Below are positions 5,346-25,789 of a stretch of 64,000 nucleotides of DNA, piece after piece. Position 1 is the first letter of the stretch. Every line of letters begins with the position of its first letter. Under the pieces are notes generated by a model. That model searched no databases, was not told where the DNA came from, and was given only the letters and a program-made list of their open reading frames with translations. The translations under genes were made by a program, and so were the position numbers. The stretch is from Candidatus Thiopontia autotrophica (GTDB lineage: Bacteria > Pseudomonadota > Gammaproteobacteria > GCF-002020875), in NCBI GenBank assembly GCA_014384675.1, contig JACNFK010000024.1, positions 17,018 through 81,017 on the forward strand, given 5' to 3'.

Positions 5346-5359
5346 TTGATCTAGATCAA
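5346..5359. promoter_or_regulatory. Perfect FNR/Dnr box TTGAT-CTAG-ATCAA, centred about 134 bp upstream of the nirS copy 1 ATG
   Basis: Exact consensus match. A Dnr-type regulator is encoded at 11058. Confidence 0.7.
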
Positions 5360-5486
5360 TGAACTGCAGGTGACTTTTGGTGGATCCTTAGTGGCGTGTG
5401 AAAAAACCTGACAACAGGAATGGGAATTATCTTTGTTCTCTACCTGCTGTTTTAACTTCTGTAAATTGTAAAGAGGGATATCCAAG

Positions 5487-7232
5487 ATGATTGATGGTAA
5501 GAAGAGGAGTTTCAAGAGGGGTGCAACCCTGGGTCTGGCAATAGCCATTACTCTGGGATTATCAGGGTGTGGTGACTCTGGTGATTCAGGCGCATCAAAA
5601 ACGGCAGCACCAGCACCGGCTCCAGCAGCAGCCCCAGCACCGGCTCCTGTCCCAGCAGCACCAGTCAAGGTGGCTGCGTCCGGGCCATCACTATCAGAGG
5701 CTGATTTTGAGCACTCCAAGAAGCTCTACTTCCAGCGCTGTGCAGGTTGTCACGGTGTACTGAGAAAAGGGGCGACAGGCAAGAGTCTGGAGCCAAAAGA
5801 TACTCGTGAGCTAGGTCAGGAGCGTCTGGAGAAGATTCTGACTTACGGAACAGACGGTGGAATGAACAACTTTGATGATATCTTCAGCAAGGAAGAGATC
5901 TCAATGATGGCCACCTACATTCAGTTGGAGCCACCAATTCCACCAGAGATGTCACTGGCGATGATGAAGGAGCGTACCGAGGTATTTATTGATCCCAAGG
6001 ACTATCCAACCAAGCCACTACATGGACGTAACTGGGAGAACTTCTTCGTAGTTATCGAGCGTGATGCTGGTAAGGCAGCAGTAATCGATGGTGATACCAA
6101 AGAGATTATCGACCATATTGACACTGGTTACGCAGTACACGTAATCAAGGCTACCGAGCACCATGAGACCGAGCATCCTGTTGGCGGTGTTGCCGGACGC
6201 TTCTGGTACACAATGGGTCGTGATGGCGTAATGAGCAAGATCGATCTGTGGCAGAACCCAGGAAGCATGCTGGTTGCCAAGACCCAGATTGCATATGATG
6301 CACGTGATGTTGCGATCTCTGGAGATGGTAAATATGTAATTGGTGGAGGCTACTGGCCACCACACTTCGTAATTGCCGATGCTGTTACCATGGAGCCACT
6401 GAAGGTAGTATCCACTCGTGGGGTAAATGTTGATGGTGAGTATGTAAATGAGTCACGTGTAGCTGCGGTCTACACCACTCCAAACGAGCCAACCTTCCTG
6501 GTTGCGGTCAAGGAGCTGGGGCAGATGTGGCAGGTTGACTACAGTGATATCGAGAATTTGGATATCACCAAAATCGACTCTGCGAAGTTCCTCCATGATG
6601 GATTCTTTGATCCAACCGGACGTTACTTCCAGATTGCGGCAAATGCATCCAACAAGATGGTTGTAGTAGATACCAAGACCCGCAAGCTTGAGGCGATGAT
6701 TGATACCACTGGCAAGAAGCCACACCCTGGCCCTGGTGCAAACTGGGATGATCCAAAACATGGTCCTGTAGGTGCTACGGTCCATCTGGGAACAGGTATG
6801 GTAACTGTATGGGGTAATGATCCAGCCGGTACACCAAGCAAGGCCTGGAAGATCGTACGTGAGATTGAGACTGATGGAGCAGGTGCATTTATCCGTACCC
6901 ATCCAAACTCCAAGTATGTATGGGCAGATCAGGTCAAGAACCCTGAGCCTGAGATACAGCAGTCTGTACAGGTTATCTCCAAGGAGACCGGCGAGATCGT
7001 CAAGACTATCCGGGTAACTGAAGAGCAGGGCAAGGCGGCACTCCATATTGAGTTTAACAAGGATGGAAGTGAGGCTTGGGTATCTGTCTGGAACCGTACA
7101 GATAACTCTAACCCAACTGGTGAGATCGTAGTCTACGATGCAGATACTCTTGAAGAGAAGGCTCGTATCAAGGGGCTGACCACACCAACCGGTAAGTTCA
7201 ACGTTTATAGTAGAACTAACCACGTAACTTGA
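5487..7232 (+). CDS. nirS: Cytochrome cd1 nitrite reductase NirS, copy 1, a lipoprotein form with an Ala/Pro-rich linker
   Basis: CAGCH c-haem domain plus a d1 propeller. The N-terminus has lipobox LSGC followed by GDSGDSG and (AP)n low-complexity sequence. Residues GPSLSEADF onward are identical to copy 2. Confidence 0.9.
   Translation: MIDGKKRSFKRGATLGLAIAITLGLSGCGDSGDSGASKTAAPAPAPAAAPAPAPVPAAPVKVAASGPSLSEADFEHSKKLYFQRCAGCHGVLRKGATGKSLEPKDTRELGQERLEKILTYGTDGGMNNFDDIFSKEEISMMATYIQLEPPIPPEMSLAMMKERTEVFIDPKDYPTKPLHGRNWENFFVVIERDAGKAAVIDGDTKEIIDHIDTGYAVHVIKATEHHETEHPVGGVAGRFWYTMGRDGVMSKIDLWQNPGSMLVAKTQIAYDARDVAISGDGKYVIGGGYWPPHFVIADAVTMEPLKVVSTRGVNVDGEYVNESRVAAVYTTPNEPTFLVAVKELGQMWQVDYSDIENLDITKIDSAKFLHDGFFDPTGRYFQIAANASNKMVVVDTKTRKLEAMIDTTGKKPHPGPGANWDDPKHGPVGATVHLGTGMVTVWGNDPAGTPSKAWKIVREIETDGAGAFIRTHPNSKYVWADQVKNPEPEIQQSVQVISKETGEIVKTIRVTEEQGKAALHIEFNKDGSEAWVSVWNRTDNSNPTGEIVVYDADTLEEKARIKGLTTPTGKFNVYSRTNHVT
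5682..7228 (+). repeat. Copy 1 of a 1547 bp perfect tandem direct repeat (nirS core); copy 2 lies 1712 bp downstream
   Basis: The 515 aa translations are identical and all off-frame and antisense ORFs are identical in both copies (e.g. 6018..6365 = 7730..8077). The boundaries are marked by mismatches at 5681/7393 and 7229/8941. Confidence 0.85.
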
Positions 7233-7240
7233 TGAGAGAG

Positions 7241-7276
7241 GCCCCTTTAACCTGACTGGTGAAAGGGGCTTTTTAC
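7241..7276 (+). terminator. Rho-independent terminator between nirS copy 1 and copy 2
   Basis: gcccctttaacc...ggtgaaaggggc hairpin followed by TTTTT. Confidence 0.6.
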
Positions 7277-8944
7277 AAGAGGAGGTTTTTTGTTTTGTTT
7301 AGGAGAACTATAAAGATGAAGAAATTATCATTGACTGCATTAAGTCTTGCAGTAGGTGTTGCAATGGGAGGGGTTGGCACTACAGTAAGTGCTGGGCCAT
7401 CACTATCAGAGGCTGATTTTGAGCACTCCAAGAAGCTCTACTTCCAGCGCTGTGCAGGTTGTCACGGTGTACTGAGAAAAGGGGCGACAGGCAAGAGTCT
7501 GGAGCCAAAAGATACTCGTGAGCTAGGTCAGGAGCGTCTGGAGAAGATTCTGACTTACGGAACAGACGGTGGAATGAACAACTTTGATGATATCTTCAGC
7601 AAGGAAGAGATCTCAATGATGGCCACCTACATTCAGTTGGAGCCACCAATTCCACCAGAGATGTCACTGGCGATGATGAAGGAGCGTACCGAGGTATTTA
7701 TTGATCCCAAGGACTATCCAACCAAGCCACTACATGGACGTAACTGGGAGAACTTCTTCGTAGTTATCGAGCGTGATGCTGGTAAGGCAGCAGTAATCGA
7801 TGGTGATACCAAAGAGATTATCGACCATATTGACACTGGTTACGCAGTACACGTAATCAAGGCTACCGAGCACCATGAGACCGAGCATCCTGTTGGCGGT
7901 GTTGCCGGACGCTTCTGGTACACAATGGGTCGTGATGGCGTAATGAGCAAGATCGATCTGTGGCAGAACCCAGGAAGCATGCTGGTTGCCAAGACCCAGA
8001 TTGCATATGATGCACGTGATGTTGCGATCTCTGGAGATGGTAAATATGTAATTGGTGGAGGCTACTGGCCACCACACTTCGTAATTGCCGATGCTGTTAC
8101 CATGGAGCCACTGAAGGTAGTATCCACTCGTGGGGTAAATGTTGATGGTGAGTATGTAAATGAGTCACGTGTAGCTGCGGTCTACACCACTCCAAACGAG
8201 CCAACCTTCCTGGTTGCGGTCAAGGAGCTGGGGCAGATGTGGCAGGTTGACTACAGTGATATCGAGAATTTGGATATCACCAAAATCGACTCTGCGAAGT
8301 TCCTCCATGATGGATTCTTTGATCCAACCGGACGTTACTTCCAGATTGCGGCAAATGCATCCAACAAGATGGTTGTAGTAGATACCAAGACCCGCAAGCT
8401 TGAGGCGATGATTGATACCACTGGCAAGAAGCCACACCCTGGCCCTGGTGCAAACTGGGATGATCCAAAACATGGTCCTGTAGGTGCTACGGTCCATCTG
8501 GGAACAGGTATGGTAACTGTATGGGGTAATGATCCAGCCGGTACACCAAGCAAGGCCTGGAAGATCGTACGTGAGATTGAGACTGATGGAGCAGGTGCAT
8601 TTATCCGTACCCATCCAAACTCCAAGTATGTATGGGCAGATCAGGTCAAGAACCCTGAGCCTGAGATACAGCAGTCTGTACAGGTTATCTCCAAGGAGAC
8701 CGGCGAGATCGTCAAGACTATCCGGGTAACTGAAGAGCAGGGCAAGGCGGCACTCCATATTGAGTTTAACAAGGATGGAAGTGAGGCTTGGGTATCTGTC
8801 TGGAACCGTACAGATAACTCTAACCCAACTGGTGAGATCGTAGTCTACGATGCAGATACTCTTGAAGAGAAGGCTCGTATCAAGGGGCTGACCACACCAA
8901 CCGGTAAGTTCAACGTTTATAGTAGAACTAACCACGTAACCTAA
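7259..8944 (+). CDS. nirS: Cytochrome cd1 nitrite reductase NirS, copy 2, a soluble periplasmic form (likely start ATG 7316, MKKLSLTALSLAVG)
   Basis: Sec signal peptide ending VSA-G; otherwise identical to copy 1. Confidence 0.9.
   Translation: MKGAFYKRRFFVLFRRTIKMKKLSLTALSLAVGVAMGGVGTTVSAGPSLSEADFEHSKKLYFQRCAGCHGVLRKGATGKSLEPKDTRELGQERLEKILTYGTDGGMNNFDDIFSKEEISMMATYIQLEPPIPPEMSLAMMKERTEVFIDPKDYPTKPLHGRNWENFFVVIERDAGKAAVIDGDTKEIIDHIDTGYAVHVIKATEHHETEHPVGGVAGRFWYTMGRDGVMSKIDLWQNPGSMLVAKTQIAYDARDVAISGDGKYVIGGGYWPPHFVIADAVTMEPLKVVSTRGVNVDGEYVNESRVAAVYTTPNEPTFLVAVKELGQMWQVDYSDIENLDITKIDSAKFLHDGFFDPTGRYFQIAANASNKMVVVDTKTRKLEAMIDTTGKKPHPGPGANWDDPKHGPVGATVHLGTGMVTVWGNDPAGTPSKAWKIVREIETDGAGAFIRTHPNSKYVWADQVKNPEPEIQQSVQVISKETGEIVKTIRVTEEQGKAALHIEFNKDGSEAWVSVWNRTDNSNPTGEIVVYDADTLEEKARIKGLTTPTGKFNVYSRTNHVT
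7394..8940 (+). repeat. Copy 2 of the 1547 bp perfect tandem repeat
   Basis: See copy 1. Confidence 0.85.
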
Positions 8945-8954
8945 GTAGAGTAGT

Positions 8955-8990
8955 GGCCGGCACCTGCATATCAGGTGCCGGTTTTTTTAT
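8955..8990 (+). terminator. Rho-independent terminator after nirS copy 2
   Basis: ccggcacctg / caggtgccgg stem followed by TTTTTTT. Confidence 0.6.
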
Positions 8991-10708
8991 ATAATTTATT
9001 TGTACTGCCTGAGGAGCCTTTAATGCCGATTCCTGAAAGACCAAGTTTCAAAGAGAGAATAAAGGTGCTGTTTTCGCGTCGTTTGATCCTCAATACGACA
9101 CTTGGAGGTGGTCTGGTGTTTGCCCTGTTTGGAATTATCTTTTGGGGTGGATTCAATACGGCAATGGAGGTAACAAATACCCTGGAGTTCTGTATCTCAT
9201 GTCATGAGATGGAGGACAATGTATACAAGGAGTACCAAAAGACTATCCACTATGCGAATCGTACTGGAGTACGGGCAACCTGTTCGGATTGTCATGTGCC
9301 TGATCCATGGATACATAAGGTAGCCAGAAAGATTGAGGCCAGTAACGAGGTGTTACACAAGATGTTGGGGACTATTGATACCCCTGAAAAGTTTGATGCA
9401 AAACGTCTGCAGTTGGCAAAAAATGTATGGCGTTCGATGAAGAGTACTGACTCCAGAGAGTGTCGGAACTGTCACAATTTTGAGGCGATGAATGGAGACA
9501 TGCAGAAGCCTCGTGCGATGAATCAACATACCAATGCGCTCAGGTCAGGACAGACCTGTATCGACTGCCATAAGGGTATTGCGCACAAAGGGGTTCATAA
9601 GCTGTTGAGTGATGAAGAGAAGGAGGCGATGGAGGCCCCTGATGAGTCACTGGCGAAACCTGAGGCAAAACTGTTCCAGCTGGCTGATCTGGATCCGGTA
9701 GCTGCGGCAGCAGCCAAGGCTGCAGCAGAGAAGGCAGCAGCAGAGGCAGCAGCAGAGGCAGCAGCCTCGGCCCAGGCAGGTAATTGGGAGACTATTGTGG
9801 GACGAGAGATTCACCTCATCTATCCTGGCCAGACATCCATAGAGTGGGTGCTGAATGGAACAGATCACGGTGGAGCAAATGCCTTTAAAAAGGGTGGAGA
9901 TCGATGCGTTACCTGTCATGACAAAGAGGCCAAGATTATGGGCGACCGTATAGTTGGTGGCACGCATGAGAAGGCGATGGAGCCAACTCCGATTGCTGGC
10001 AAGCGGGGTGGAGTTCCTGTCATGGTGAAGGCCGCTCATGATGGCGATAATCTATACATGCAGTTTACCTGGCATGATGTTGACCACCATACAGCGGGGC
10101 ATAAGTCGGTTGTTGAGGCTGAGCGGATGGATCCCGAGAACCCTGTCAAGCTGGCGATAATGTTTGCGACCGATCAAGTAGAGTTTGCAGACCGTTCAGG
10201 ATGTTGGGGAACTTGTCACCATGATGCCAATGGCATGCCCCATCAGCCAGAGGGTACAGATGTAACCAAGTACACCAAGGAGTCACGCACCAAGATTGAG
10301 GTCAAGGGGCGTCGTGGCAAGAAGCGTGGTGGCTGGGACAAGTTGAGAAAGCCTGAAGAGATTAAGGCTGCACTTGATCAGAAAAAGATCATGGATCTTG
10401 TGCGCTACAAGGCTGGCAGCAACCAGGCAGAAGATGGAATGATCCTGGCCAGCCGTGATATGAGTGGTAACAGTGATGACCTTGAGTTTGAGGGCAAGAG
10501 AGATGACCAGGGAAACTGGGTGGTAGAGATGAAGCGTAAGCTGAATTCCGGTGATGCAGATGATCTGTCACTGGCGCTGGACCAAGTCTATAATTTTGGT
10601 TTTGCTATCCATGATGACTACACCAATGGACGCTTCCACCATGTCTCATTTGGTTACAAGCTTGGGTTTGATGACCCAAAAGCGGAGATCAATGCTGTAA
10701 AATGGTGA
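8975..10708 (+). CDS. nirT: NirT/NapC-family membrane tetraheme quinol dehydrogenase fused to a ~330 aa C-terminal domain with extra haem motifs (likely start 9023, MPIPERP)
   Basis: TM helix then CISCH, CSDCH, CRNCH, CIDCH. An Ala-rich linker (AAAAAKAAAEKAAAEAAAEAAA) follows. The C-terminal domain carries CVTCH and CWGTCH (CX3CH). Confidence 0.8.
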   Translation: MPVFLYNLFVLPEEPLMPIPERPSFKERIKVLFSRRLILNTTLGGGLVFALFGIIFWGGFNTAMEVTNTLEFCISCHEMEDNVYKEYQKTIHYANRTGVRATCSDCHVPDPWIHKVARKIEASNEVLHKMLGTIDTPEKFDAKRLQLAKNVWRSMKSTDSRECRNCHNFEAMNGDMQKPRAMNQHTNALRSGQTCIDCHKGIAHKGVHKLLSDEEKEAMEAPDESLAKPEAKLFQLADLDPVAAAAAKAAAEKAAAEAAAEAAASAQAGNWETIVGREIHLIYPGQTSIEWVLNGTDHGGANAFKKGGDRCVTCHDKEAKIMGDRIVGGTHEKAMEPTPIAGKRGGVPVMVKAAHDGDNLYMQFTWHDVDHHTAGHKSVVEAERMDPENPVKLAIMFATDQVEFADRSGCWGTCHHDANGMPHQPEGTDVTKYTKESRTKIEVKGRRGKKRGGWDKLRKPEEIKAALDQKKIMDLVRYKAGSNQAEDGMILASRDMSGNSDDLEFEGKRDDQGNWVVEMKRKLNSGDADDLSLALDQVYNFGFAIHDDYTNGRFHHVSFGYKLGFDDPKAEINAVKW

Positions 10709-10709
10709 G

Positions 10710-11069
10710 ATGATAATTATTAATTACAGGCCTCTCATGCTTCTGCTGGGAGGCCTTTTTTTTGTTTCAGGATGTTCAAATGATCTGCCTGTGCCAAAGG
10801 TGGTTGAGATTGAGATCATTAATTATGGATACCAACCACAAACTGTGACCATTAATCCCGGTGATACAGTACGCTGGATTAACCGTGAGAAGAGACAGTA
10901 CCACTCGGTAAAACTTGATGGTGATGGTGGCGGTGGTTCGGTTAATTCAGAGTATCTCTTTCCTGGGGAGAGCTGGGAGCATACCTTCAGTCAAGAAGGG
11001 GTGTACAACTATATGTGTGGCCCACATTCGGAAATGGTTGGAGCTGTGAAGGTGAAATCACTCATCTAG
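10710..11069 (+). CDS. Type-1 (blue) copper cupredoxin lipoprotein (plastocyanin/pseudoazurin-like)
   Basis: Lipobox FVSGC. H..YMCGPHSEM(V) has the C-x-P-H-x-x-M copper-ligand spacing. Its start lies 2 bp after the nirT stop. Confidence 0.75.
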   Translation: MIIINYRPLMLLLGGLFFVSGCSNDLPVPKVVEIEIINYGYQPQTVTINPGDTVRWINREKRQYHSVKLDGDGGGGSVNSEYLFPGESWEHTFSQEGVYNYMCGPHSEMVGAVKVKSLI

Positions 11070-11744
11070 GGTTTCTCGCATCTTCTCGGCATTGAGGATG
11101 TGGACCTCGTAGCCATGAACCTCAATCATCTTGTTCTTTTTCAGTTTCCCAAGAATGCGAGAGAAGGTCTCTCTCTGAATCGAGAGTCTGGAGGCAATTA
11201 CACTTTTCTGGGTCGGTAACTGAAAGGTGCCTTCATTGTCCTCGGCAGGAATGAAGGTGAGCAGATAGCTTATCAATCTGTGGGTGGCATTATGCAGGCA
11301 TAGGCCATCTATCTCCTGTACATAACTCTGTAGTCGCATACTAAGGTCAGACATGATCGAGAAGGTAGTGTCCGGATCTGAGCGCAAGATATTTTTGTAT
11401 ATCTTACTGTTGAAAACAAAGATCTCTCCACTCTCCAGGAACTGGCTGTTGACAGGGTAGGTGCCACCATCCATAAACATCATCGCCTCAGCAAAGGATT
11501 GGCCAGCCTGGAGAATATTTACCGTCTTCTCACCGCCGTCGAGGGCTAGTAGATAAAGTCGAATGGTGCCGGTTCTTACGATAAAGAAATGGGTTGCTGC
11601 TTCATCTTTAAGGAACAGGGTCTCATTTGGTTTTTTTCTGATTAGTTCGGATGTCTCCAACATCTCTTGCATGGACTCTTTGGTGAGAGAGGCAAAAAGC
11701 GGAGAGCGGCGAAGTTCACGCTCAAAAACAGTGGATAGAGACAT
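11058..11744 (-). CDS. dnr: Crp/Fnr-family regulator of the Dnr/NnrR type (no N-terminal Cys cluster)
   Basis: cNMP-binding fold plus a C-terminal HTH with the E--SR recognition motif (RETFSRIL) expected for TTGAT half-sites. Confidence 0.75.
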   Translation of the reverse strand: MSLSTVFERELRRSPLFASLTKESMQEMLETSELIRKKPNETLFLKDEAATHFFIVRTGTIRLYLLALDGGEKTVNILQAGQSFAEAMMFMDGGTYPVNSQFLESGEIFVFNSKIYKNILRSDPDTTFSIMSDLSMRLQSYVQEIDGLCLHNATHRLISYLLTFIPAEDNEGTFQLPTQKSVIASRLSIQRETFSRILGKLKKNKMIEVHGYEVHILNAEKMRETLDE

Positions 11745-15439: not shown

Positions 15440-15453
15440 TTGATCAAGATCAA
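15440..15453. promoter_or_regulatory. Perfect FNR/Dnr box TTGAT-CAAG-ATCAA between the small secreted-protein gene (-) and menA (+)
   Basis: Exact consensus. Centre is 20 bp before the menA ATG and 80 bp before the minus-strand gene start. Confidence 0.6.
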
Positions 15454-15465: not shown

Positions 15466-16341
15466 ATGAGCTCCCCATGGCTACAGGCTGTACGCCCCAA
15501 AACCCTCTCAATGGCGGTAATTCCCGTTCTTCTGGGGGCTGTGGTAGCCCATACAGAGAGCGCTCTATTTAAACCGCTACTACTCTCCCTTGTCCTTCTG
15601 GCTGCTCTTCTTATCCAGATTGGAACAAATCTATACAATGATGTTGGGGATGCAGAGCGTGGGGCAGATGGGCCAGACCGTCTGGGTCCAAAGCGGATGG
15701 TAGCGGCAGGGGTGTTGAGTGCGGGCAGTGTTCGAAAGGCTGCGATTCTCTCTTTTTTTGGTGCTTTTGTAATAGGTGTGGCCCTGGTTGTGGTTGGTGG
15801 GTTGCCAATCATCTTTATCGGGTTGTCATCAATTGCCGCAGGGATCGCCTATACCGGAGGCAGACTTCCCATTGCCTACACATTTATGGGGGAGCTGTTT
15901 GTCTTTCTCTTCTTTGGGGTTGTTGCAGTTATGGGTACTACCTATCTCATCACTCTGCAGTGGAGCTCTACAGCACTGTTGGTTGGGTCCGTCATAGGGT
16001 TGTTGGCGGCGGCAGTTCTGGTTGTAAATAACTATCGGGATATTGATACTGACCGTGCGGTGGGGAAGAATACCCTGGCAGTCACTCTTGGAGCAGCGCT
16101 CACCAGGGTTCTCTATCTCACGCTTTTATTGACCCCATTTCTGGTGTTGCTGGTGCTCTCTGAACAACTTCAGAAGCCGCTACTGATCTGGGTTATGATG
16201 CCGGCACTGCCGGTTTCACTCTATCTGGGGAGAAAGATATATCTTCTCCCTCACGGTCGAGGGTTAAACCAGCTGTTGGCGCAGACGGCTCAGCTGCAGC
16301 TTCTGTTCGGGATATTGATGATGTTTGGACTTTACCTATGA
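15466..16341 (+). CDS. menA: 1,4-dihydroxy-2-naphthoate octaprenyltransferase (UbiA family)
   Basis: N-terminal WLQAVRPKTL as in MenA, NDVGDAERGADGPDR motif, multiple TM helices. Confidence 0.8.
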   Translation: MSSPWLQAVRPKTLSMAVIPVLLGAVVAHTESALFKPLLLSLVLLAALLIQIGTNLYNDVGDAERGADGPDRLGPKRMVAAGVLSAGSVRKAAILSFFGAFVIGVALVVVGGLPIIFIGLSSIAAGIAYTGGRLPIAYTFMGELFVFLFFGVVAVMGTTYLITLQWSSTALLVGSVIGLLAAAVLVVNNYRDIDTDRAVGKNTLAVTLGAALTRVLYLTLLLTPFLVLLVLSEQLQKPLLIWVMMPALPVSLYLGRKIYLLPHGRGLNQLLAQTAQLQLLFGILMMFGLYL

Positions 16342-17180
16342 AAATAAAAAATATAGCCATTGTAGCCGCTCTTTTACTCTCACCCCTCTCTCTTGCCGAC
16401 ACCCACAGTCAGGAGCATGAGGCATCAGTTCTGCTCCCCCCAACATCCATTGCCCAGTGGTACAAGCCACAAAACAAGCGACAGGTATGGCTTCATACCA
16501 TGTTCCGTCTACGCCGCGCTATGCTGGCAATCCAGGAGTATACGGCTCTGCAGGATGAGAAGCTGCTGGACAAGTGGGGCTCACAATTTATCAAGGACTA
16601 CAGAAGTATCACCGAGATGGTTCCAGAGTGGGGTGACGAGATTGAGCCAGGGTGGATTAATCGACTTGAGCAGGTGATCAGAGATAGAGATTGGGAGGCT
16701 ATGGGTGGGGCACTCAGAAAGGTGGGGATGACCTGTAGCTCATGCCATGATGACTATCGTGCAGTTACTGCGGCACTATACAGAACCCCGGATTTTGAGA
16801 AGGTGATGGTTGAGGATAGTGAGACCATGGAGGATCTATCTTATAAAGAGACAATGAATAACCTTACAACTTCCATGAACCGTTTCAAGATAGCGGTTGA
16901 GGATGGTCGCAAAACTGCTGCAACGGAGTATCTTGAGATGTTCTCAATCAGGGTAATTGATCTGGGTGAGAGCTGTAGCGGATGCCACCGTGATGAACAA
17001 CCTCGTGAACGCATTCTTGGTGAGGAGACAGAGTTCCTGCTGGAGGAGCTATCGGTTCTGCTGGCCGAAAATCCCGAAGGGGTTGGGAGAAAACTGGGTG
17101 AGGTGGGGGTTGCTGTCTGTGCTCGCTGTCACGGTGTTCATCGTACCCTCGCAGATCTGAGAAGAGTGGTTGAGCCATGA
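16338..17180 (+). CDS. Secreted c-type cytochrome with three CXXCH motifs, translationally coupled between menA and ubiE
   Basis: Signal peptide. CSSCH, CSGCH and CARCH motifs. Start overlaps the menA stop (ATGA) and stop overlaps the ubiE start. Confidence 0.65.
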   Translation: MKIKNIAIVAALLLSPLSLADTHSQEHEASVLLPPTSIAQWYKPQNKRQVWLHTMFRLRRAMLAIQEYTALQDEKLLDKWGSQFIKDYRSITEMVPEWGDEIEPGWINRLEQVIRDRDWEAMGGALRKVGMTCSSCHDDYRAVTAALYRTPDFEKVMVEDSETMEDLSYKETMNNLTTSMNRFKIAVEDGRKTAATEYLEMFSIRVIDLGESCSGCHRDEQPRERILGEETEFLLEELSVLLAENPEGVGRKLGEVGVAVCARCHGVHRTLADLRRVVEP

Positions 17181-17905
17181 GTGACAAGGGAGAGCAGCTT
17201 TCGCAGACCTTCGGTTACTCCAGGGTTGATGAGCAGGAGCGTGAAAAGAAGATACGTGCCGTTTTTCAGGCGGTCGCCCCCCGTTATGATCTGATGAACG
17301 ATATGATGAGCTTTGGTATCCACCGCCTCTGGAAGCGTCGTTTGGTAAAGATGGTCAACCCACAGAGCGCTGAGCTGATAGTCGATCTGGCTGGTGGTAC
17401 CGGCGACATTGCCGAGAAGATGGCGGCAGAGGGGCGTACGGTTGTTGTAATAGACCCCAGTGAGGCGATGATGGCAGAGGGGAAGAGGCGAGGTATCAGG
17501 GGAGTCGAGTTCCGGGTGGGAACAGGGGAGTCCATACCCCTGCCTGACAGCTCGGTTGATCGTCTTACCATCTCCTTTGGTATCCGCAATATGACAAATA
17601 TGGGGCAAGCTCTGAGTGAGATCAATCGTGTGTTAAAGCCTGGTGGAAAAATGTACTGCCTTGAGTTCTCCAGACCCCACTGGTTGATCAAGCCTTTTTA
17701 TGATCTCCACTCCTTTTATCTGATCCCACGTCTGGGAGCATGGGTGGCCAAGGCGCCAATCGCCTACAATTATCTGGTGGAGTCAATTCGCCGCTTCCCC
17801 GATCAGGAGGAGATGAAGAGGATGATGGAGCAGGCAGGATTCACCAATGTCAGTTACAGAAACCTCACCTTTGGAATTGCCGCCATTCATACTGGTGAGA
17901 AATGA
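17177..17905 (+). CDS. ubiE: Demethylmenaquinone/ubiquinone C-methyltransferase
   Basis: UbiE/MenG signature (DLMNDMMSFG, VDLAGGTGD), 242 aa. Confidence 0.85.
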   Translation: MSDKGEQLSQTFGYSRVDEQEREKKIRAVFQAVAPRYDLMNDMMSFGIHRLWKRRLVKMVNPQSAELIVDLAGGTGDIAEKMAAEGRTVVVIDPSEAMMAEGKRRGIRGVEFRVGTGESIPLPDSSVDRLTISFGIRNMTNMGQALSEINRVLKPGGKMYCLEFSRPHWLIKPFYDLHSFYLIPRLGAWVAKAPIAYNYLVESIRRFPDQEEMKRMMEQAGFTNVSYRNLTFGIAAIHTGEK

Positions 17906-18888
17906 GTGTTGATGAAGTAGATATCACCCTGGAGACCAGTGGCACCGAGGGTGTTGCAAAACAAGTCAGCTTCTCTGTAGAGAGATTGCGAGCCAGTGCC
18001 CGCATGGGGCGAGCGTTGGAGGATCTTCAGTCTGGTGACTGCTGGCTTAACTGTCTGCCACTGAACCATGTTGGTGGTCTCTCTATCAAGTATCGCTGTG
18101 AAGAGGCAGGAGCCGCCATGCTGCTTCATGAGGGCTTTGACCCGGAAAAAATTTATGGTGATCTAAAGCGGCACTTTGTTACTCATATTTCACTGGTTCC
18201 GGTAATGCTCTCGAAATTGCTGGACTATTTTGGAGATAAGCCCGCCCCTACATATCTAAAGACGGTACTGATCGGTGGAGACCATCTGCCAAAGTCACTG
18301 GCCCAGCGTGCTGTAGAGAGGGGGTGGCCCATTGTGGTCTCCTATGGGCTGACAGAGACTGCATCAAGGATCACCATGTTGCGACTCTCTGGTGAAAATA
18401 TTGCGGCATGGGATGATAGTGATGTAGGTCCTCCTCTGCCTGGAGTCTCTGTAACCATAGGGGGGCAGGGTGAGATCAGGATAAGGAGTGATCAGCTGCT
18501 GGGTGATCATGAGGTTGTAACCGCTGACCATGGGGCAGTTGATGACAGCGGTCACCTTCATGTTTATGGAAGGCTGGACTGTCGGATTATCTCGGGAGGC
18601 GTGACTATTGATCCTGTAACCATAGAGCAGCTGATGATCTCTGCACCAGGGGTAAAAGATGTGGGTGTAGGCTCTGTTCCTGACAAGGAGTGGGGTGAGC
18701 GTATTGTTGCAGTTATAGCTGGTGATATGAATCAGGACATTGTGGCTGGCTGGATGAGAGAGAATATTCCATCTGGTCTGCGCCCACGAGAACTGCTGTT
18801 GGTCTCCGAGTTAAGACGCAATCGTCTGGGCAAGCTGGATCGAGAGTGGTTAAAAAATCAGGCAGAGAGTGCGTTTAGCATACCCTGA
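17902..18888 (+). CDS. menE: Short-form o-succinylbenzoate-CoA ligase (AMP-binding superfamily)
   Basis: TSGTEG P-loop-like motif, YGLTET, and a length and context typical of short MenE. Confidence 0.65.
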   Translation: MSVDEVDITLETSGTEGVAKQVSFSVERLRASARMGRALEDLQSGDCWLNCLPLNHVGGLSIKYRCEEAGAAMLLHEGFDPEKIYGDLKRHFVTHISLVPVMLSKLLDYFGDKPAPTYLKTVLIGGDHLPKSLAQRAVERGWPIVVSYGLTETASRITMLRLSGENIAAWDDSDVGPPLPGVSVTIGGQGEIRIRSDQLLGDHEVVTADHGAVDDSGHLHVYGRLDCRIISGGVTIDPVTIEQLMISAPGVKDVGVGSVPDKEWGERIVAVIAGDMNQDIVAGWMRENIPSGLRPRELLLVSELRRNRLGKLDREWLKNQAESAFSIP

Positions 18889-20228
18889 ATCTTTAGTCCG
18901 ATCTCTGCTATCTCGTCTTCAGCAACTGACCCCTTAACAATGCCGGCACCGGCGTAGAGAATAGCTTTTTCATCTTCAACCATTGCGCAGCGTAGTAGCA
19001 CATGGATCTCTCCATCTCCATCAGGATCAATCCAGCCGGCACCACCACAATACCCGCCACGGTAGCTGTTGTTGTGTTCAGTTAGCCACTGGAGAGCCGC
19101 TGTTCTTGGGGTTCCACAGATTGCAGGGCTCTGGTGAAGGGCCTCAATCAGCTCAAATATGGAGGTACTGTCTCTTCCGTCTTCTGTTTTCAGCCTCCCC
19201 TTGATCGCGGTCAGTAGATGTTGAATATTCTCAAGCTTGTGAATGGTTGGCGTGGCTGGTATATCTACGGTCTCACAGAGTGGTAGCAGTGCACTGCCGA
19301 CAGCATCAACCACCAGCTGGTGTTCATGACGTAGCTTGGGATTCTTGAGCAGGAGCTGTTCCTGCATACTCTCCTCTTCTTCACTGCTGCCCCGGGGAAG
19401 GGTGCCTGCCAGGGCGTCAGACTCCACGTCGGCTCCTCGCTTGGAGAAGAGGCGTTCAGGAGGTGCGGCAATAAAATGTCTCCCTTCTATGGAGAACGAG
19501 AACTGCGCGGTTGATGGGCTGCTCCGTTCCAGTTTTTTCAGGGTTCGCTCTGTGCCTATCGGATTGGAGAAGTGAAACCGTTGCTGCTCTCCTATTACCA
19601 GCTTCTCGATTGTGTTGGAGTAAATGGTCTCAATAGCATCCCTGAAAATCTGATCTGCCGAATCAAGGCTGTTGTCCGGAGTAATGGTTGATGGGGCGCC
19701 TGGAGGAGGGTGGTTATCTAGAATTTCTCTCAGCTGGTTGATATCCTCCTGCCAGTTTTCCAGGATCTCTTCCTCTGCTATCCCCTCTCTCTGGTGTGAA
19801 AAAATGACACTCTGTCTCCCGCTCTGGTTGATGAGCTGAACGCGTGGCAGCATAAGTAGGGTGTTGGGGAACCCGTGCCACTCATTCTGCATTGGATCAT
19901 CCTCATGGAATGCGTAATGAAACAGAGTTCTTGGTGAGGCTCCGGTCTCTTCCGGGTCAAAAACAGCCCATGAGTTTGTGAGTTGCAGAAACTGTTCCCT
20001 GGCCTCGGTAAAGCGTTCTCTCCCTCTCAGCTCTCTCTGCCATCCGCTCTGCAGTGCGAGCAGCCTTACCCCTTCACGTGGGCTCCTCCAGTAGATACCA
20101 TTTTTTAGGGGTGGTGGGGCAGTGAATGGGCGCTCATTGAATGGCAGAATGATGCTGATAACCTGATCAATTTGGCTGTCACTGTTATTATAAACTAGAT
20201 TAAGTTCATGTTTTAACTTATTGATCAT
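18858..20228 (-). CDS. menF: Isochorismate synthase (chorismate-binding family)
   Basis: C-terminal chorismate-utilising motifs (GGAGWIDPDGDGE, YAGAGIV). Context in the men cluster. Confidence 0.8.
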   Translation of the reverse strand: MINKLKHELNLVYNNSDSQIDQVISIILPFNERPFTAPPPLKNGIYWRSPREGVRLLALQSGWQRELRGRERFTEAREQFLQLTNSWAVFDPEETGASPRTLFHYAFHEDDPMQNEWHGFPNTLLMLPRVQLINQSGRQSVIFSHQREGIAEEEILENWQEDINQLREILDNHPPPGAPSTITPDNSLDSADQIFRDAIETIYSNTIEKLVIGEQQRFHFSNPIGTERTLKKLERSSPSTAQFSFSIEGRHFIAAPPERLFSKRGADVESDALAGTLPRGSSEEEESMQEQLLLKNPKLRHEHQLVVDAVGSALLPLCETVDIPATPTIHKLENIQHLLTAIKGRLKTEDGRDSTSIFELIEALHQSPAICGTPRTAALQWLTEHNNSYRGGYCGGAGWIDPDGDGEIHVLLRCAMVEDEKAILYAGAGIVKGSVAEDEIAEIGLKIQGMLNALSA

Positions 20229-20255
20229 TGGGTGTTGTCTAAGTAAAAACCTGGA

Positions 20256-21077
20256 CTAGGTTCTTCGCTTGTGCTTTGTGAAGTCTGGCGGACGTTTTTC
20301 ATTAAAGGCATTACGGCCTTCCTGTCCTTCGTCTGACATGTAAAAGAGGGCAGTGGCGTTACCTGCCAGCTCCTGAATTCCGGCAAGCCCATCGGTATCT
20401 GCATTAAATCCAGCCTTGAGAAGACGTAGTGCTGTTGGACTGTGCTGCAACATCTCCTGGCACCAACGGATGCTCTCCTCCTCCAGCTTGTCAGCGGGGA
20501 CAACACGGTTGACTAGCCCCATATCCAGTGCCTCCCCGGCACTGTATTGACGACAGAGAAACCAGATCTCTTTTGCCTTTTTCATCCCTACGGTGCGTGC
20601 CAACAGACCCGCTCCAAGACCTGCATCAAAACTTCCGACCTTGGGGCCGGTCTGTCCAAAGATGGCACTGTCGGATGCGATGGAGAGATCACAGATCAGA
20701 TGGAGGACATGGCCACCACCTATGGCGTATCCATTTACCATCGCCACTACCGGCTTTGGCAAGGTACGTATCTGACGCTGCAGGTCGAGTACATTGAGAT
20801 GCTCTCCACCACTCTCATCCTTGTAGCCGCTAGCGCCACGAATCTTCTGGTCACCACCTGAGCAGAATGCCTTCTCTCCTGCACCGGTCAGGATAATGGC
20901 TCCTATCTCACTGTCCATATGTGCGCGGTGAAATGCATCTATCATCTCCTCTACAGTCTCCGGGCGGAAGGCGTTATGTACCTGGGGACGGTTGATGGTG
21001 ATTTTGGCAATCCCCTCTGCACTATCGTAGAGGATATCCCGGTAGTTGGAATCGATATCTCTTATCCACTCAATCAA
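20256..21077 (-). CDS. menB: 1,4-dihydroxy-2-naphthoyl-CoA synthase (crotonase fold)
   Basis: Crotonase signatures ([26 protein letters not shown]), 273 aa. Confidence 0.9.
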
Positions 21078-22903
21078 TGTAGTGACTCCCAGTATTGGTG
21101 ATGGTTACGGTTGCTGATATTGCGATCAATGGTCAATTCTATCAGTTTGGGATGGGGCTGTTGGAGCACCTCATCCAGGTATAGTGCCAGGCCATCTCTA
21201 TCTGTTACCTCTCTGTAGGGGATATCATAGAGGGCGGCAACTCTCTTGAACTCTACCGTAGTTGGGGTTAGCCAAAGTGACTCAAATTCAGGTAGCTGGG
21301 CTGGGGGAAGATGGCTGAAGATGTTGCCGCCACCATTATTGATCACAATAATTGTCAGATCCATCTCCAGCTCTTTTGCCAGATAGAGGGCGTTCAGATT
21401 GTGAAAGAGGGTAAGGTCACCTAGTAGTGCAACAACAGGGGTGTCGGGGTCTGTAACTGCACGAATGCCACAGACGGTGGCAAGGTTGCCATCAATCCCG
21501 CTGGCCCCGCGATTTGCAAACAGTTTTAGAGGCTCCTCTCTTTGAGTCATCCAACCATCGATATCTCTGATCACCATGGAGTTTCCACTAAACAGAATGG
21601 TGCCGCCAGGCAGTTGTCGGTTTAGCGTCCTGATTACCTGATCTTCACTCAGGTCGTCAGGGTTGCTTCTCCATTCTGCCGCTAACCGCTCCTTCTCTTT
21701 TAGTGTATGAAGATGGCTATTACCAGCCTGTGGCTGTGGGCGTCCAGAGGGACACCCGCAAGGCGAAGCGGGGAGATTGTCTGTAGGGTTGGGGTCTGCA
21801 TACTGTAGTAACTGTTGGCAGAAGGTTGCAGGGGAGGTAGAGATTTTTGTATTGGATAGTGATAGTGGATCGCTCCAGACAGTTTTGTGGTGCACGGTGA
21901 TGTAGCGTTTTGGCAGGCTCTCTTGTAGCAGAGTAGCTACCGCTTTCGATAGCGGAAAACGACCAAACTGGATAACCCACTCTGGACGACATAACCTGCG
22001 GTTCTTCTCATTACGGAGGATTCCGTCGTAGTGGGTAAAGAACAGTTGATTGTCGTCATCTCCCCAGCGCAGGTTGGAGAGTGGGTCTGCAAAAACTGGA
22101 GCCCCAAGACTCTCGGCAAGCTGGTTCAGTACTGTATTGAAGCCCTTGGGATAATGTGACTCTCCACACAAGATAACCCCTGGTTTGCCACTGACCTCCT
22201 GGCATATCTCCTGGTAGTCAATAACAGGGATGGTGTTATCAGCATGGTCCCTGGCGGCATATTGCAGGCCACTATTGTGCCACTTGATCTGCTTGCTGTT
22301 GCGGGCAAGAAGTGGTTCTCTAAACGGGATATTCAGGTGGACGGGCCCCGGTGCCGGATTCTCCATTGACTCAATCATCTGTGGAACCAGCTCTGTCAGC
22401 TGAGTAACTGGATCATCTATCTCATCCGGGGGAGGGGTGGTGTATCTGGCACTAACCTGTTCCCCAAAGATATTGTTCTGGGCAATGGTCTGGTTGGCCC
22501 CACAGTTGTGAAGTTCTGGTGGGCGATCTGCAGAGAGTAGCAGAAGAGGGGTGGATGAGTGGTATGCCTCAATAACGGCAGGGAGCCAGTTTGCAACCGC
22601 AGTTCCAGAGGTGCAGATCAGAGCTGTTGGGACTTCTCTCTTTTTGCTCTGTCCAAGTGCCATGAAGGCTGCATCACGTTCATCTACGATGACCCAATAT
22701 TTTGTATCGGGGTGACGAGCTACAGCAAGAGCCAGAGGAGTTGATCTGGAACCGGGTGAGATAACAAAGTGGGTTATGCCGCCATCCACCAGAGCCTGTA
22801 TCAGGGTGGCAGACCACTGCAGGTTTATAGCACCTATATCACTCATATCTCTGCAAAATATCTCTGAGAGCATCAGGGAGGGGTATCTTCTCTCCACTAT
22901 CAA
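21074..22903 (-). CDS. menD: SEPHCHC synthase (ThDP-dependent); likely true start near 22846 ([11 protein letters not shown])
   Basis: N-terminus resembles MenD ([21 protein letters not shown]), ThDP fold. Overlaps the menB start. Confidence 0.85.
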
Positions 22904-23261
22904 TAGAGGTGGTTACATGGGTAGTTGTAACTGTGGCCTTGAGTTGTGGCTTGCCGCCATCATCAAAACCATGCGTCAGGGTTTTCAGGGTAAATGAGTG
23001 GTTGCCAATGGCTGTCACCTGAATAGTAAGGGTAAGGGTTTCACCAAGTTTTATCGGTTGGTGATAATCCGCATCGGCATGGACCAGAGGGATGGCCTCT
23101 CCTCTCTGTTGAATAATGTTGTGAAGAGGCAGGTTGTTGCTGAATAGCATCTCCTCATAGGCATTGTGGGTCAGCCTGAAGAGCTCTCCATAGAAGAGCA
23201 GGCCGGCGCCATCAATCTCGTGAAGTTGAACTCTATGGGGGTAGGAGAAAAAATTATTCAT
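22839..23261 (-). CDS. Hotdog-fold (4HBT/YbgC-like) acyl-CoA thioesterase, probably DHNA-CoA hydrolase
   Basis: 140 aa with the 4HBT-type N-terminal motif (YPHRVQLHEIDGAGLLFYG). Sits between menC and menD. Confidence 0.6.
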   Translation of the reverse strand: MNNFFSYPHRVQLHEIDGAGLLFYGELFRLTHNAYEEMLFSNNLPLHNIIQQRGEAIPLVHADADYHQPIKLGETLTLTIQVTAIGNHSFTLKTLTHGFDDGGKPQLKATVTTTHVTTSIDSGEKIPLPDALRDILQRYE

Positions 23262-24379
23262 GGCAGGGTCAGTATCCCGTTTTTTATCGGTAGAGCCAAC
23301 ATAAGATCTTCTGCTAGCAGTGATGAGGTTGCAAGCCCGTGAGCATGTCTCTGTTCCGGGTCAACAGCTCCAGCACAGTATGCTGCCGAGATTATGCCCA
23401 CGCTACTCTCCAGTGCTGAGGTGATGATGACATCAACCCCTCTCTCTTTAAACTGAGTGGCAATCTTGAAAGTTGTATATGGTCCTCCCATCAGAGCAGG
23501 CTTAAGGACAACACGCTGGAGCTGTTCATTTTTTAGTAATGTCTCAACCCCAAAGTCAGACACTGATTCATCCAGTGCCAGCGGGAAGGGTGTCTCTCTC
23601 TGTAGTTTATTAATAGTCTCAAGGGTGGGGTTTTTAAGTGGCTCTTCCAGAGACTCTATATTTATGGGCATGGGTAGCGCTTGAATGGCAGAGATAAATT
23701 GAGATGCTTCCGTTATGCTCCATGCCTGGTTTGCATCAAGCCTTATTTCAGTGTGCTGTGGCAGTGTTGCAGCTAAGCTGTACAGTTGTGCAACCTCTTC
23801 ATCAATAGATGACAGGCCAACCTTTACCTTTATAACTGATTCACCATCAACTGGTTCTGTTGCTTTGGCAAGAGTACCGGCAGGGTGGTTGACCCTGATT
23901 TTATTGGTGGCATTGGGGGATATCCAGCTGCCTGGGGTCAGGCCGCATCTTTTCGCCAGTATTGTAATCAGGGCAGACTCTACCCCACAACAGGCTGCAG
24001 GAGAGGTGTTGCGTAGATCTGGAAGTCTGGCCAGCAGGTCATCGACAGAGATGTTGTCTGCCTCTTCCTTTAATAGCTCCAGAGTTTTGCGGCACTGTTC
24101 CAGTGATTCGCTACCCATCTCTGGTAGAGGTGCCGCATCTCCCAGCCCTGCTACGCTATCCTGCTCACTTATCTCTACAAGAAAACCTGCACGATTGTTG
24201 ATGGTTCCATGGCTAGTTACCCATGGATGCCTGAGTGGCAAGTGATAGGGGAGGATGAAGAGTGAATTAATCATCATCCAGGATGGATAGATAGGCCAGC
24301 AGGTTGTGAATATCTTCCTCGCTATACTCGTTGAAGAGGGATTCATTTGTCTCCTCATTGTCATGAACCCTGTTGCCAT
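23258..24379 (-). CDS. menC: o-Succinylbenzoate synthase (enolase superfamily); likely start near 24277 (MMINSLFILPY)
   Basis: Enolase-superfamily catalytic residues (KVKVG, DANQAW, LEEP, ALDES..D). Context in the men cluster. Confidence 0.75.
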   Translation of the reverse strand: MATGFMTMRRQMNPSSTSIARKIFTTCWPIYPSWMMINSLFILPYHLPLRHPWVTSHGTINNRAGFLVEISEQDSVAGLGDAAPLPEMGSESLEQCRKTLELLKEEADNISVDDLLARLPDLRNTSPAACCGVESALITILAKRCGLTPGSWISPNATNKIRVNHPAGTLAKATEPVDGESVIKVKVGLSSIDEEVAQLYSLAATLPQHTEIRLDANQAWSITEASQFISAIQALPMPINIESLEEPLKNPTLETINKLQRETPFPLALDESVSDFGVETLLKNEQLQRVVLKPALMGGPYTTFKIATQFKERGVDVIITSALESSVGIISAAYCAGAVDPEQRHAHGLATSSLLAEDLMLALPIKNGILTLP

Positions 24380-24935
24380 CCCTGTAGGCGAAGATCTGTT
24401 TCAATAGATATGCACTATATTGTCCAGTTAGTAGAGGAATACTCTTTTTAGGTTTCCCCTCCCCATGACGGCCATGACAGCTTGCACACTCTTGGTTGTA
24501 GAGCTTTTCTCCTGCATTCACATCACCTTCGAGCCTGGGTATGGTGAGTAGCTTCTTACTTAGTAGCAGACGTTCATAGGCATCAAAGTTCTCTTCATCT
24601 ATTGGCGGAAGTTTTGAATAGAGTTGTATGGTCGGGAGGTATGCAGATACATCCAGCAGATCCTCCTCCGGCAGCTCTCGCTCCTTGGTGTATGGAATCA
24701 TGGGGTGGTTGAGACGTTCACGACTTTTGAAACGACGTAGCTCCTCTGCAATGTATTTTTCCGGCAGTCCTGCTAGACGGGGATACTCTCCCTCCTTGCC
24801 CCCTTCGGCATATTCACCATGACAGCCTGCACATACCTCGTTGATCTCCTCACCAATCTCAAGATTTGCAGCAGATGAGATACCTGATACAACCACAATG
24901 GCCATTGCTCTGAATGTCTGTTTGATTCCTTCCAT
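24267..24935 (-). CDS. Dihaem cytochrome c (c4-like), the last gene after nosY
   Basis: Signal peptide plus CAGCHGE and CASCHGRHG motifs. Confidence 0.75.
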   Translation of the reverse strand: MEGIKQTFRAMAIVVVSGISSAANLEIGEEINEVCAGCHGEYAEGGKEGEYPRLAGLPEKYIAEELRRFKSRERLNHPMIPYTKERELPEEDLLDVSAYLPTIQLYSKLPPIDEENFDAYERLLLSKKLLTIPRLEGDVNAGEKLYNQECASCHGRHGEGKPKKSIPLLTGQYSAYLLKQIFAYRDGNRVHDNEETNESLFNEYSEEDIHNLLAYLSILDDD

Positions 24936-24961
24936 GGCAGGTATTCAGGATGGTAGAGTTG

Positions 24962-25789
24962 CTAAAGTTGATCACCACGGCGGAACAGCATATATCCGAC
25001 AGAGGCAGCGACTGTACCTAGTACAAGAGGGTATGCCATAGCCCATACCAGATACCAGAACTCGCCAAAATGGTCGAGAATGAGATAGGCTGAGGGGCCG
25101 AGCAGAACAAGCTGAGGATCAAACAGCAGCATCGATGCGGTACGAAAAACCTGTAGTGGGTTGCTCAGTGCGATGGCAACAATAGTATCCGAGGGGATCT
25201 GTTGCTGAATCATTATGCCAAGCAGAATAAGATCCAGAAACAGTAGCAGGAAGAGCCAGATCATGAAGGCGCTACCCTGAGCCACATCTGGTGACCTGGC
25301 AATGGTGGAGATTAGCATCCCAATACCAAGGAAGCACCACGATAGAGAGAAGAGCATGGCTGTGTAGAAGAGGAAGATGGACCATGGAATCTCCATATCC
25401 TGAATAACTCCCCATGCAATTGCCCCTGCCATGGCAAGGAAAACAGGAAGGAAGACTACGGTAAAGCGACCAAACATCTTTCCCCAGAACCATGAGGAGA
25501 GAGATATGGGTAGTGAGAGCAGGTACTCAAAGATTCCTGCATCACGATCACCGGCGACAGAGCGTACTGTGGTTATCAGAATAAATATCGGGAGAATAGC
25601 CATTGATAGCTGAATGTATGTAATCAGGAGGCGGGAGAGTCCGACAAACCCCATTATTCTGGATTCAGTCAATCCAAAGGCAAATAGCAGGGCAATAATT
25701 CCCCCAAAGACAATTGAATATATAAGGAACCACTTGCTACGCAGTGACTCGGAGATATCTGCCTTTGCTGTCATCAAGGTGTGCTTCAT
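24962..25789 (-). CDS. nosY: ABC-2 type permease NosY
   Basis: Six TM helices, ~275 aa, overlaps the nosL stop by 4 bp. Context with nosD and nosF. Confidence 0.7.
   Translation of the reverse strand: MKHTLMTAKADISESLRSKWFLIYSIVFGGIIALLFAFGLTESRIMGFVGLSRLLITYIQLSMAILPIFILITTVRSVAGDRDAGIFEYLLSLPISLSSWFWGKMFGRFTVVFLPVFLAMAGAIAWGVIQDMEIPWSIFLFYTAMLFSLSWCFLGIGMLISTIARSPDVAQGSAFMIWLFLLLFLDLILLGIMIQQQIPSDTIVAIALSNPLQVFRTASMLLFDPQLVLLGPSAYLILDHFGEFWYLVWAMAYPLVLGTVAASVGYMLFRRGDQL

Follow-up and report, generated by a model that had tools for sequence, protein, structure and literature searches.

A three-haem class II-like cytochrome encoded between menA and ubiE in Candidatus Thiopontia autotrophica, a probable electron carrier of denitrification

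Why is a gene for an exported multihaem cytochrome placed, with overlapping ends, among genes for the biosynthesis of menaquinone (MK)? The question is raised by a stretch of 64,000 nucleotides from the gammaproteobacterium Candidatus Thiopontia autotrophica (contig JACNFK010000024.1; the whole stretch is referred to as the window), in which an open reading frame (ORF) on the plus strand at 16338..17180, designated cyt3, lies between menA and ubiE and encodes, from an ATG start, a three-haem c-type cytochrome of 280 aa whose sequence is identical to MBC8519514.1, "cytochrome c" of the same organism. An earlier note on this DNA had offered two readings of the locus, a quinone-linked electron-transfer or quinol-oxidising function whose production is matched to that of MK, or else a novel accessory step. 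This article describes the family, predicted structure and genomic contexts of cyt3, which favour the weaker of these readings: cyt3 is probably a periplasmic electron-transfer cytochrome of the denitrifying chain that is co-expressed with MK synthesis in the Thiopontia clade. A role in MK biosynthesis is unlikely, and a new pathway step is not revealed.

The coupling of cyt3 to its neighbours can be read directly in the DNA, as the earlier note had stated. The upstream gene, menA (1,4-dihydroxy-2-naphthoate (DHNA) polyprenyltransferase; 15466..16341, plus strand), ends in CTA TGA with the stop codon at 16339-16341 and the cyt3 ATG occupies 16338-16340, giving an ATGA overlap at 16338-16341; at the other end cyt3 closes with CCA TGA (stop codon at 17178-17180), and the ATG of the ubiE/menG methyltransferase gene (17177..17905, plus strand) occupies 17177-17179 within a second ATGA at 17177-17180. 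Both neighbours are identified by profile matches above threshold, MenA with NF004751 (278 bits, cut-off 264) and TIGR00751 (192 bits, cut-off 102) and UbiE/MenG with TIGR01934 (260 bits, cut-off 158). The 3' end of ubiE is overlapped by a gene for a short MenE-like o-succinylbenzoate-CoA ligase of 328 aa (17902..18888, plus strand), and menF, menB, menD and menC are found on the opposite strand to menA-menE (18858..24379, minus strand). Counts of internal promoter and terminator signals in menA-menE are not above those of shuffled sequence. The Pfam and NCBIfam matches of cyt3 include no Men-enzyme family, in agreement with the lack of similarity to Men enzymes asserted before.

The placement of cyt3 in the men operon is specific to one lineage. 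A locus scan with one genome per species gave 285 relatives, the best 80 of which were kept as loci; the order menA-cyt3-ubiE-menE is present only in the 10 closest of these (L001-L010, 57-87% identity), in which overlaps of 1-4 nt between cyt3 and both menA and ubiE recur. In a neighbour-joining (NJ) tree the cytochromes of these ten loci and the window copy cluster as a single monophyletic set of 11. In the remaining 70 of the 80 loci, which come from Sedimenticola, siboglinid tubeworm symbionts, Thiodiazotropha, Thiohalomonadaceae and others, no men operon adjoins cyt3; the association of menA, cyt3 and ubiE that the earlier note pointed to holds for the former set and not for the latter.

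Denitrification genes are the commoner company of these cytochromes. Genes of the nir, nor or nos type lie no more than 6 kb from cyt3 in 42 of the 70 loci outside the men clade, and in 27 of 40 when loci of at least 10 kb are considered. A recurring context consists of a convergent gene for a SNase-like protein followed by a haem d1 operon (cd1-type nirN/S, nirJ, nirDLGH, nirF), and norCB is found upstream of cyt3 in 12 loci. Co-directional neighbours at less than 350 bp include a cupredoxin gene upstream (8 loci), a dihaem cytochrome c peroxidase (CCP) gene downstream (6 loci), which in Thiodiazotropha endolucinida (L071) overlaps cyt3 by ATGA, and genes for an octahaem cytochrome and a PF01292 cytochrome b, also downstream (6 loci). 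The gene order in Thiodiazotropha is hemerythrin, nirS, NirT-EB_dh, cupredoxin, cyt3 and CCP, and may be compared with nirS, nirS, NirT-EB_dh and cupredoxin in the window, where cyt3 comes about 5 kb further on. In a Sedimenticola locus (L036) cyt3 stands beside the ZnuA-SCO1 fusion and 115-aa genes that in the window come ahead of menA, with nosZ, an FNR-type gene and nirS in the vicinity and no men genes. Among these sulfur oxidisers cyt3 is regularly found within denitrification and respiratory islands, and the men genes are the unusual part of the island in the Thiopontia clade. The relatives mostly adjoin nir, nor or nos genes. Co-expression in an MK-dependent denitrification island is the best explanation of the position between menA and ubiE.

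The window is itself an island of this kind. Its upstream part (1087..11744) holds genes for NapG/H-like Fe-S proteins, a nirF-like gene, nirE, two nirS genes, and genes for a NapC/NirT-EB_dh fusion, a cupredoxin and a Crp/FNR regulator, and is followed by genes for a hemerythrin, a dihaem cytochrome c, a DUF2249 protein, the ZnuA-SCO1 fusion and the 115-aa ORF (11.9-15.4 kb), by the men genes with cyt3 between menA and ubiE (15.5-24.4 kb) and by a clade II nos cluster on the minus strand (24267..35415; dihaem cytochrome c, nosY, nosL, nosF, nosH, nosG, nosD, a 403-aa ORF and Sec-type nosZ), with housekeeping genes beyond about 36 kb. The encoded NosZ is Sec-type and belongs to clade II (TIGR04246, 862 bits), NosG is NapG-like and NosH is a member of the NapH family; NosGH is regarded as a quinone-oxidising module that resembles NapGH (PMC3475470). 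The nirS cluster on one side and the nosZ/NosGH cluster on the other enclose the whole men set (menA, ubiE, menE, menF, menB, menD, menC), and this embedding suggests that denitrification in this gammaproteobacterium runs on MK. A recent horizontal insertion was considered and rejected, since the GC content is 46-52% throughout and the men genes show no compositional break. Four perfect FNR/DNR boxes (TTGAT-N4-ATCAA) occur in the island at 5252-5265, 5346-5359, 11815-11828 and 15440-15453, all of them intergenic; the number of perfect palindromic 10-base sites expected by chance in 64 kb is estimated at roughly 0.1.

The product of cyt3 is a secreted protein with three CXXCH motifs, as previously noted, and this description is confirmed by the sequence and by conservation throughout the family. 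Residues 1-20 (16338..16397, plus strand), MKIKNIAIVAALLLSPLSLA, followed by DTH, read as a Sec signal peptide with a basic n-region, a hydrophobic core and an SLA cleavage site, cleavage being predicted before Asp21; the lipobox Cys is absent, and the mature protein is therefore expected to be soluble and periplasmic. A signal peptide together with CXXCH haem attachment implies export to the periplasm (Sec/Ccm maturation). The N-termini of the relatives are variable and hydrophobic in an alignment of closer relatives (A1). The three motifs, each read from the sequence on the plus strand and each invariant, are CSSCH (C133-H137; 16734..16748), CSGCH (C213-H217; 16974..16988) and CARCH (C261-H265; nt 17118-17132), the last being followed by His268 (motif and histidine together, 17118..17141).

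The family is large and its haem content is constant. Homologues of cyt3 number 1036 at E <= 1e-3, and exactly three CXXCH motifs are present in 118 of 118 full-length proteins among the top 120 homologues and in 69 of 69 full-length representatives after clustering at 50%. In a wide alignment (A2) that reaches about 22% identity, the nine Cys and His residues of the motifs are invariant together with P44, W98 and H268; the CXXCH motifs are not chance occurrences, because they are conserved across the family down to that level. Members of the family carry only the database names "cytochrome c", "cytochrome c556" or "Cytochrome C'". Three longer relatives of 539-608 aa (P0324, P0325, P0328) have six CXXCH motifs spaced as two three-haem units and are tandem fusions.

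The N-terminal part of the protein, about residues 45-147 (16470..16778, plus strand), is a class II (cytochrome c'/c556-like) helical domain that carries haem 1, as indicated by PF01322, by matches in the PDB and by an AlphaFold2 (AF2) model. The PF01322 (cytochrome c') match, at 41.8 bits (cut-off 26.5; E 2.5e-10), is above the Pfam gathering threshold and spans only cyt3 residues 107-141, which correspond to profile positions 87-121 of 121 (35 positions). Sequence and profile searches of the PDB likewise align cytochromes c' (1bbh, 1cpq, 1e83) and b562 with residues 98-141, a stretch comprising the last two helices of the N-domain and the sequence CXXCH-x-Y-R; with only these helices aligned, the distal pocket of cyt3 is not mappable in this way. 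The likeness to cytochrome c' and b562 four-helix-bundle families that the earlier note proposed to check is supported by these matches for the N-half; the C-terminal half is not recognised by Pfam. By hhalign, the C-terminal two-haem helical domain (residues 148-280; 16779..17177, plus strand) is a diverged repeat of the N-domain: the two halves align with a probability of 86% (E 5e-6), and the haem-1 helix pairs with the haem-3 helix. This domain is present in 114 clusters (50% identity) and is nearly always the C-half of a protein of 270-300 aa.

The AF2 model, built from a 39-sequence alignment, is confident and all-helical (predicted local distance difference test, pLDDT, 83; predicted template modelling score, pTM, 0.77), with helices at 47-70, 74-89, 104-116 and 119-147 in the N-domain and at 246-265 in the C-domain; C133-H137 lies within helix 119-147 and C261-H265 at the end of helix 246-265. 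As in class II cytochromes c, the CXXCH motif is located at the C-terminal helix of the predicted helical unit in the haem 1 and haem 3 regions, and the predicted helical fold is a further likeness. Known class II members, however, are monohaem proteins of about 105-135 aa, whereas cyt3 has 280 aa, three haems and two units in tandem, with its additional haem placed after the second helix of unit 2. Because hhalign aligns the haem-1 and haem-3 helices, cyt3 is a tandem of two class II-like units, the second of which has acquired the additional haem site. The family is uncharacterised, and a class II cytochrome made tandem and three-haem is a new architectural variation on that class. Multihaem families of the c3/c7 and MtrC types were rejected as relatives, all matches being below threshold and driven by the motifs (PF14522, PF14537 and PF22113 at 18.7, 17.7 and 18.1 bits, cut-offs 24.8, 25 and 30). 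Cytochromes c3/c7 (PF14522, PF14537, PF02085), the tetrahaem CctA and trihaem proteins of the DsrJ type share with cyt3 the presence of several haems in a small soluble periplasmic protein, but c3/c7 folds use about 25-30 residues per haem, compared with about 93 in the predicted helical-bundle architecture of cyt3.

The haem of cytochromes c556 and b562 takes its sixth ligand from a Met early in helix 1, and cyt3 has candidates for the same function. Met55 (16500..16502, plus strand), near the start of the first helix of the AF2 model, does not vary in A1, is conserved to at least 90% in A2, and is a likeness to c556 and b562 in its own right; Met173 (16854..16856, plus strand), which lies where the first helix of domain 2 begins, is also invariant in A1 and is the residue of the majority in A2. 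On the grounds of conservation and helix position, and by analogy with c556 and b562, Met55 would be the distal ligand of haem 1 (His137/Met55) and Met173 that of haem 3 (His265/Met173), and His268 would complete the coordination of haem 2 (His217/His268). Because these sixth-ligand candidates (H268, M55, M173) are conserved, six-coordinate haems of the electron-transfer type are suggested.

Taken with its genomic contexts, this protein would most probably be a soluble shuttle of electrons in the periplasm, serving an anaerobic denitrifying respiratory chain. Its electrons would be supplied by membrane modules that oxidise quinol, the candidates in the window being the NirT-EB_dh fusion, NosGH and perhaps the bc1 complex, and would be delivered to periplasmic reductases or peroxidases such as cd1 NirS, cNor, NosZ and CCP. 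In the Candidatus Thiopontia clade cyt3 has become fixed between menA and ubiE, with the men operon in the middle of the island, and since the stop-start overlaps occur in a men operon inside a denitrification island, cyt3 would be made together with the MK that presumably feeds the same chain through NirT-EB_dh and NosGH. From these features it is inferred that cyt3 is an electron carrier, which proteins are its partners, and that the chain uses MK. Among known carriers of denitrification (NirM c551, the dihaem NirB c552, pseudoazurin/azurin), cyt3 finds counterparts in being a periplasmic haem protein of a size that suits shuttling. In Pseudomonas stutzeri the cluster nirSTBM includes NirT, a quinol dehydrogenase, and cyt3 in Thiodiazotropha is similarly located downstream of nirS, NirT(-EB_dh) and a cupredoxin, as it is, more loosely, in the window. 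The established carriers are, however, class I cytochromes or cupredoxins with no sequence relationship to cyt3, for which the function is proposed from context.

Several observations weigh against this electron-carrier role. The flanks of 28 of the 70 loci contain no denitrification gene, and some contexts of cyt3 are unrelated (L089). The nir haem-d1 operon of most Sedimenticola loci runs towards cyt3 from the opposite strand, convergently, and is not co-transcribed with it. An FNR-type box upstream of cyt3 is found in 7 of 66 other loci, compared with a background of 3%. The ligation that would make all three haems of cyt3 six-coordinate, and that suggests electron transfer and not gas binding, is a prediction from sequence; a Foldseek search of the AF2 model against the PDB gave only generic helical-bundle matches (best E 0.17); and a survey of the literature on three-haem four-helix-bundle cytochromes, cytochrome c556 in denitrification and Thiopontia yielded no paper on the family. 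Membership of cyt3 in an FNR/DNR regulon was dropped as a proposal, 7 of 66 loci being too weak and most of the seven sharing a single Sedimenticola box sequence.

A further difficulty is a second adjacency of menA and cyt3. In a Thyasira-symbiont Sedimenticola (L083/L084) and in L034, a MenA orthologue (54-56% identity) is encoded divergently upstream of cyt3 as the sole men gene adjoining it, and the cytochromes of these three loci form a separate small clade in the NJ tree; the adjacency of menA therefore exists in two cytochrome lineages, which hints at an MK-specific link that the shared island covers only in part. On one reading, considered improbable, cyt3 would be a menaquinol-specific periplasmic redox partner, docking on an MK-dependent NirT-EB_dh or NosGH or acting on the MK pool at the membrane surface. 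If it were true, selection for carrier and low-potential quinone in fixed proportion would lie behind both the translational coupling of cyt3 to menA and ubiE and the recurrence of menA beside it in the other clade, and the locus would represent a "supra-operon" for quinone biosynthesis and an electron carrier, of a kind not described so far. In L083, nosZ lies 3 kb downstream of cyt3. The menA of the same locus, in a region (5762-7806) where it is divergent from cyt3, is flanked by a transposase gene of the IS110 family, and no other men gene lies within 8 kb of it.

Cytochrome c' is the only recognisable homology of cyt3, and proteins of that family bind NO and are linked to protection from nitrosative stress. 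It might be proposed on these grounds that cyt3 binds, buffers or senses NO or another gas and protects against the NO released by cd1 nitrite reductase, with no function as a shuttle; the presence of norCB next to cyt3 in 12 loci and of hemerythrin genes near it in several would fit. Such a function is nevertheless doubtful, and given about as little weight as the menaquinol-specific partner. The near-invariant Met55 and the invariant His268, and likewise the conservation of Met173, suggest that the sixth coordination sites are occupied, the match to the c' profile is confined to the last two helices and leaves the distal-pocket part unaligned, and a chain-like protein of two domains with three haems is an arrangement typical of electron carriers.

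The stronger claim of the earlier note, that cyt3 acts on MK itself, either by oxidising newly made (demethyl)menaquinol or in an accessory redox step of its biosynthesis, draws on the ATGA overlaps at both ends of the gene, on the retention of 1-4 nt overlaps in ten related loci, and on the immediate divergent menA of the second cytochrome clade (Thyasira Sedimenticola, L034). This proposal fares slightly worse than that of gas binding. MenA acts within the membrane or facing the cytoplasm and UbiE acts in the cytoplasm, whereas cyt3 is exported; UbiE/MenG takes the quinol form (EC 2.1.1.163), so that no oxidation is needed between MenA and UbiE. No men gene is found near cyt3 in 67 of the 80 related loci, and cyt3 has no similarity to any Men enzyme. 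A reciprocal test, in which the contexts of the nearest MenA homologues outside the locus scan were compared, points in the same direction. In a Thiotrichales metagenome-assembled genome (MAG; L085, 59% identity) a Crp/FNR gene precedes menA-ubiE-menE, with menA and ubiE overlapping and the cytochrome absent, and in Thiohalobacter (L086) the order is menF-D-B-A-C, again with no cytochrome; from these cytochrome-free operons it follows that the MK operon functions without cyt3. In Sedimenticola thiotaurini DRKP01, menA is followed by genes for a class I dihaem cytochrome and nosL (L087), while cyt3 is unlinked to it and adjoins norCB on a different contig (L027). L085 nests inside the cytochrome-bearing clade in NJ trees built from MenA and from UbiE, which carry no bootstrap support and would suggest a clean secondary loss of cyt3 in that lineage. 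With cyt3 outside men operons in 70 of 80 loci and the protein exported, the accessory step is not upheld, and the weaker proposal of the note, an electron-transfer protein whose synthesis is coordinated with that of MK, survives as compatible with the role in denitrification favoured here.

Least likely of all is that cyt3 is a maturation helper, acting for example as the electron acceptor of NirN in the last step of haem d1 synthesis, or as the redox partner of an SCO1-type copper chaperone for NosZ or oxidases. The nirF-DLGH-J-N haem d1 operon does adjoin cyt3 in about 25-35 loci, five loci have cox15 with SCO1 next to it, and the window clade and L036 have ZnuA-SCO1. These d1 and SCO1 neighbours, however, are convergent or divergent and are not transcribed together with cyt3; the genes that do share its direction encode electron-transfer proteins (cupredoxin, CCP, octahaem cytochrome with cytochrome b), and many cyt3 loci have neither d1 nor SCO1 genes.

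If cyt3 is indeed an electron carrier of denitrification, it represents an unstudied periplasmic carrier with about 1000 known sequences, and extends the class II fold from monohaem proteins to tandem three-haem forms, or six-haem forms in the fusions. Its carriers are sulfur-oxidising Gammaproteobacteria, both symbiotic and free-living, among them Sedimenticola, Candidatus Thiopontia and the symbionts of tubeworms, lucinids and thyasirids; they matter for marine nitrogen loss and N2O turnover. The family is widespread in such ecologically important symbionts and in bacteria of oxygen-minimum zones, and a denitrification run on MK would bear on the energetics of this process in oxygen-minimum zones.

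Some further features of the window and of related loci may be recorded. The tandem nirS genes (5487-7232 and 7259-8944, plus strand) encode proteins that are 99% identical (516/518 aa) and differ in their N-terminal signal and linker regions; the pair is either a very recent tandem duplication or an artefact of MAG assembly. They are followed by a fusion gene (8975-10708, plus strand) that joins a tetrahaem quinol dehydrogenase of the NapC/NirT type to EB_dh, a haem b domain like the gamma subunit of ethylbenzene dehydrogenase, and, immediately after it, by the gene for a lipoprotein-like cupredoxin (10710-11069, plus strand); the same pair precedes cyt3 in Thiodiazotropha, where the fusion has two EB_dh repeats (928 aa). 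On the minus strand, a ZnuA-type metal-binding domain is fused to SCO1/SenC in a protein of 485 aa (13566-15023), and the overlapping gene at 15020-15367 encodes the unannotated exported protein of 115 aa (hyp115), a pair that is conserved in the men-cyt3 clade. The 98-bp divergent region between hyp115 and menA contains the fourth of the FNR/DNR-type boxes, TTGATCAAGATCAA (15440..15453), which is conserved in L001-L010 together with flanking GTG...GAG. This box is 12 bp from the menA ATG and has a -10-like TAAGAT about 33 bp away on the minus strand; its assignment to menA as a promoter element was rejected, the spacing being a better fit to a class II promoter of the divergent hyp115-ZnuA/SCO1 operon, and the box is not counted in favour of anaerobic FNR control of the men operon.

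Within the men genes, the MenE-like ligase matches TIGR01923 with an E-value of 9e-59, under the cut-off, from profile position 111 onwards; the protein begins about 10 residues ahead of the TSGTxG nucleotide-binding motif, its counterpart in L085 is equally short (331 aa), and the 3' end of its gene overlaps the convergent menF by 31 bp. Neither menH nor a DHNA-CoA thioesterase gene was identified among the annotated ORFs of the window. In the nos cluster, the 403-aa ORF between nosD and nosZ (30411-31622, minus strand) has no Pfam or NCBIfam match and, by its position, could encode the NosB-type membrane protein of clade II nos clusters. In tubeworm symbionts (L081/L082 and L016-L025), cyt3 is followed by genes for a 568-aa multihaem cytochrome (PF11783) and a PF01292 cytochrome b and is preceded by norCB with genes of the CbbQ/VWA type (NorQ/NorD-like); the PF11783 cytochrome and its cytochrome b may constitute an uncharacterised quinol-linked module.

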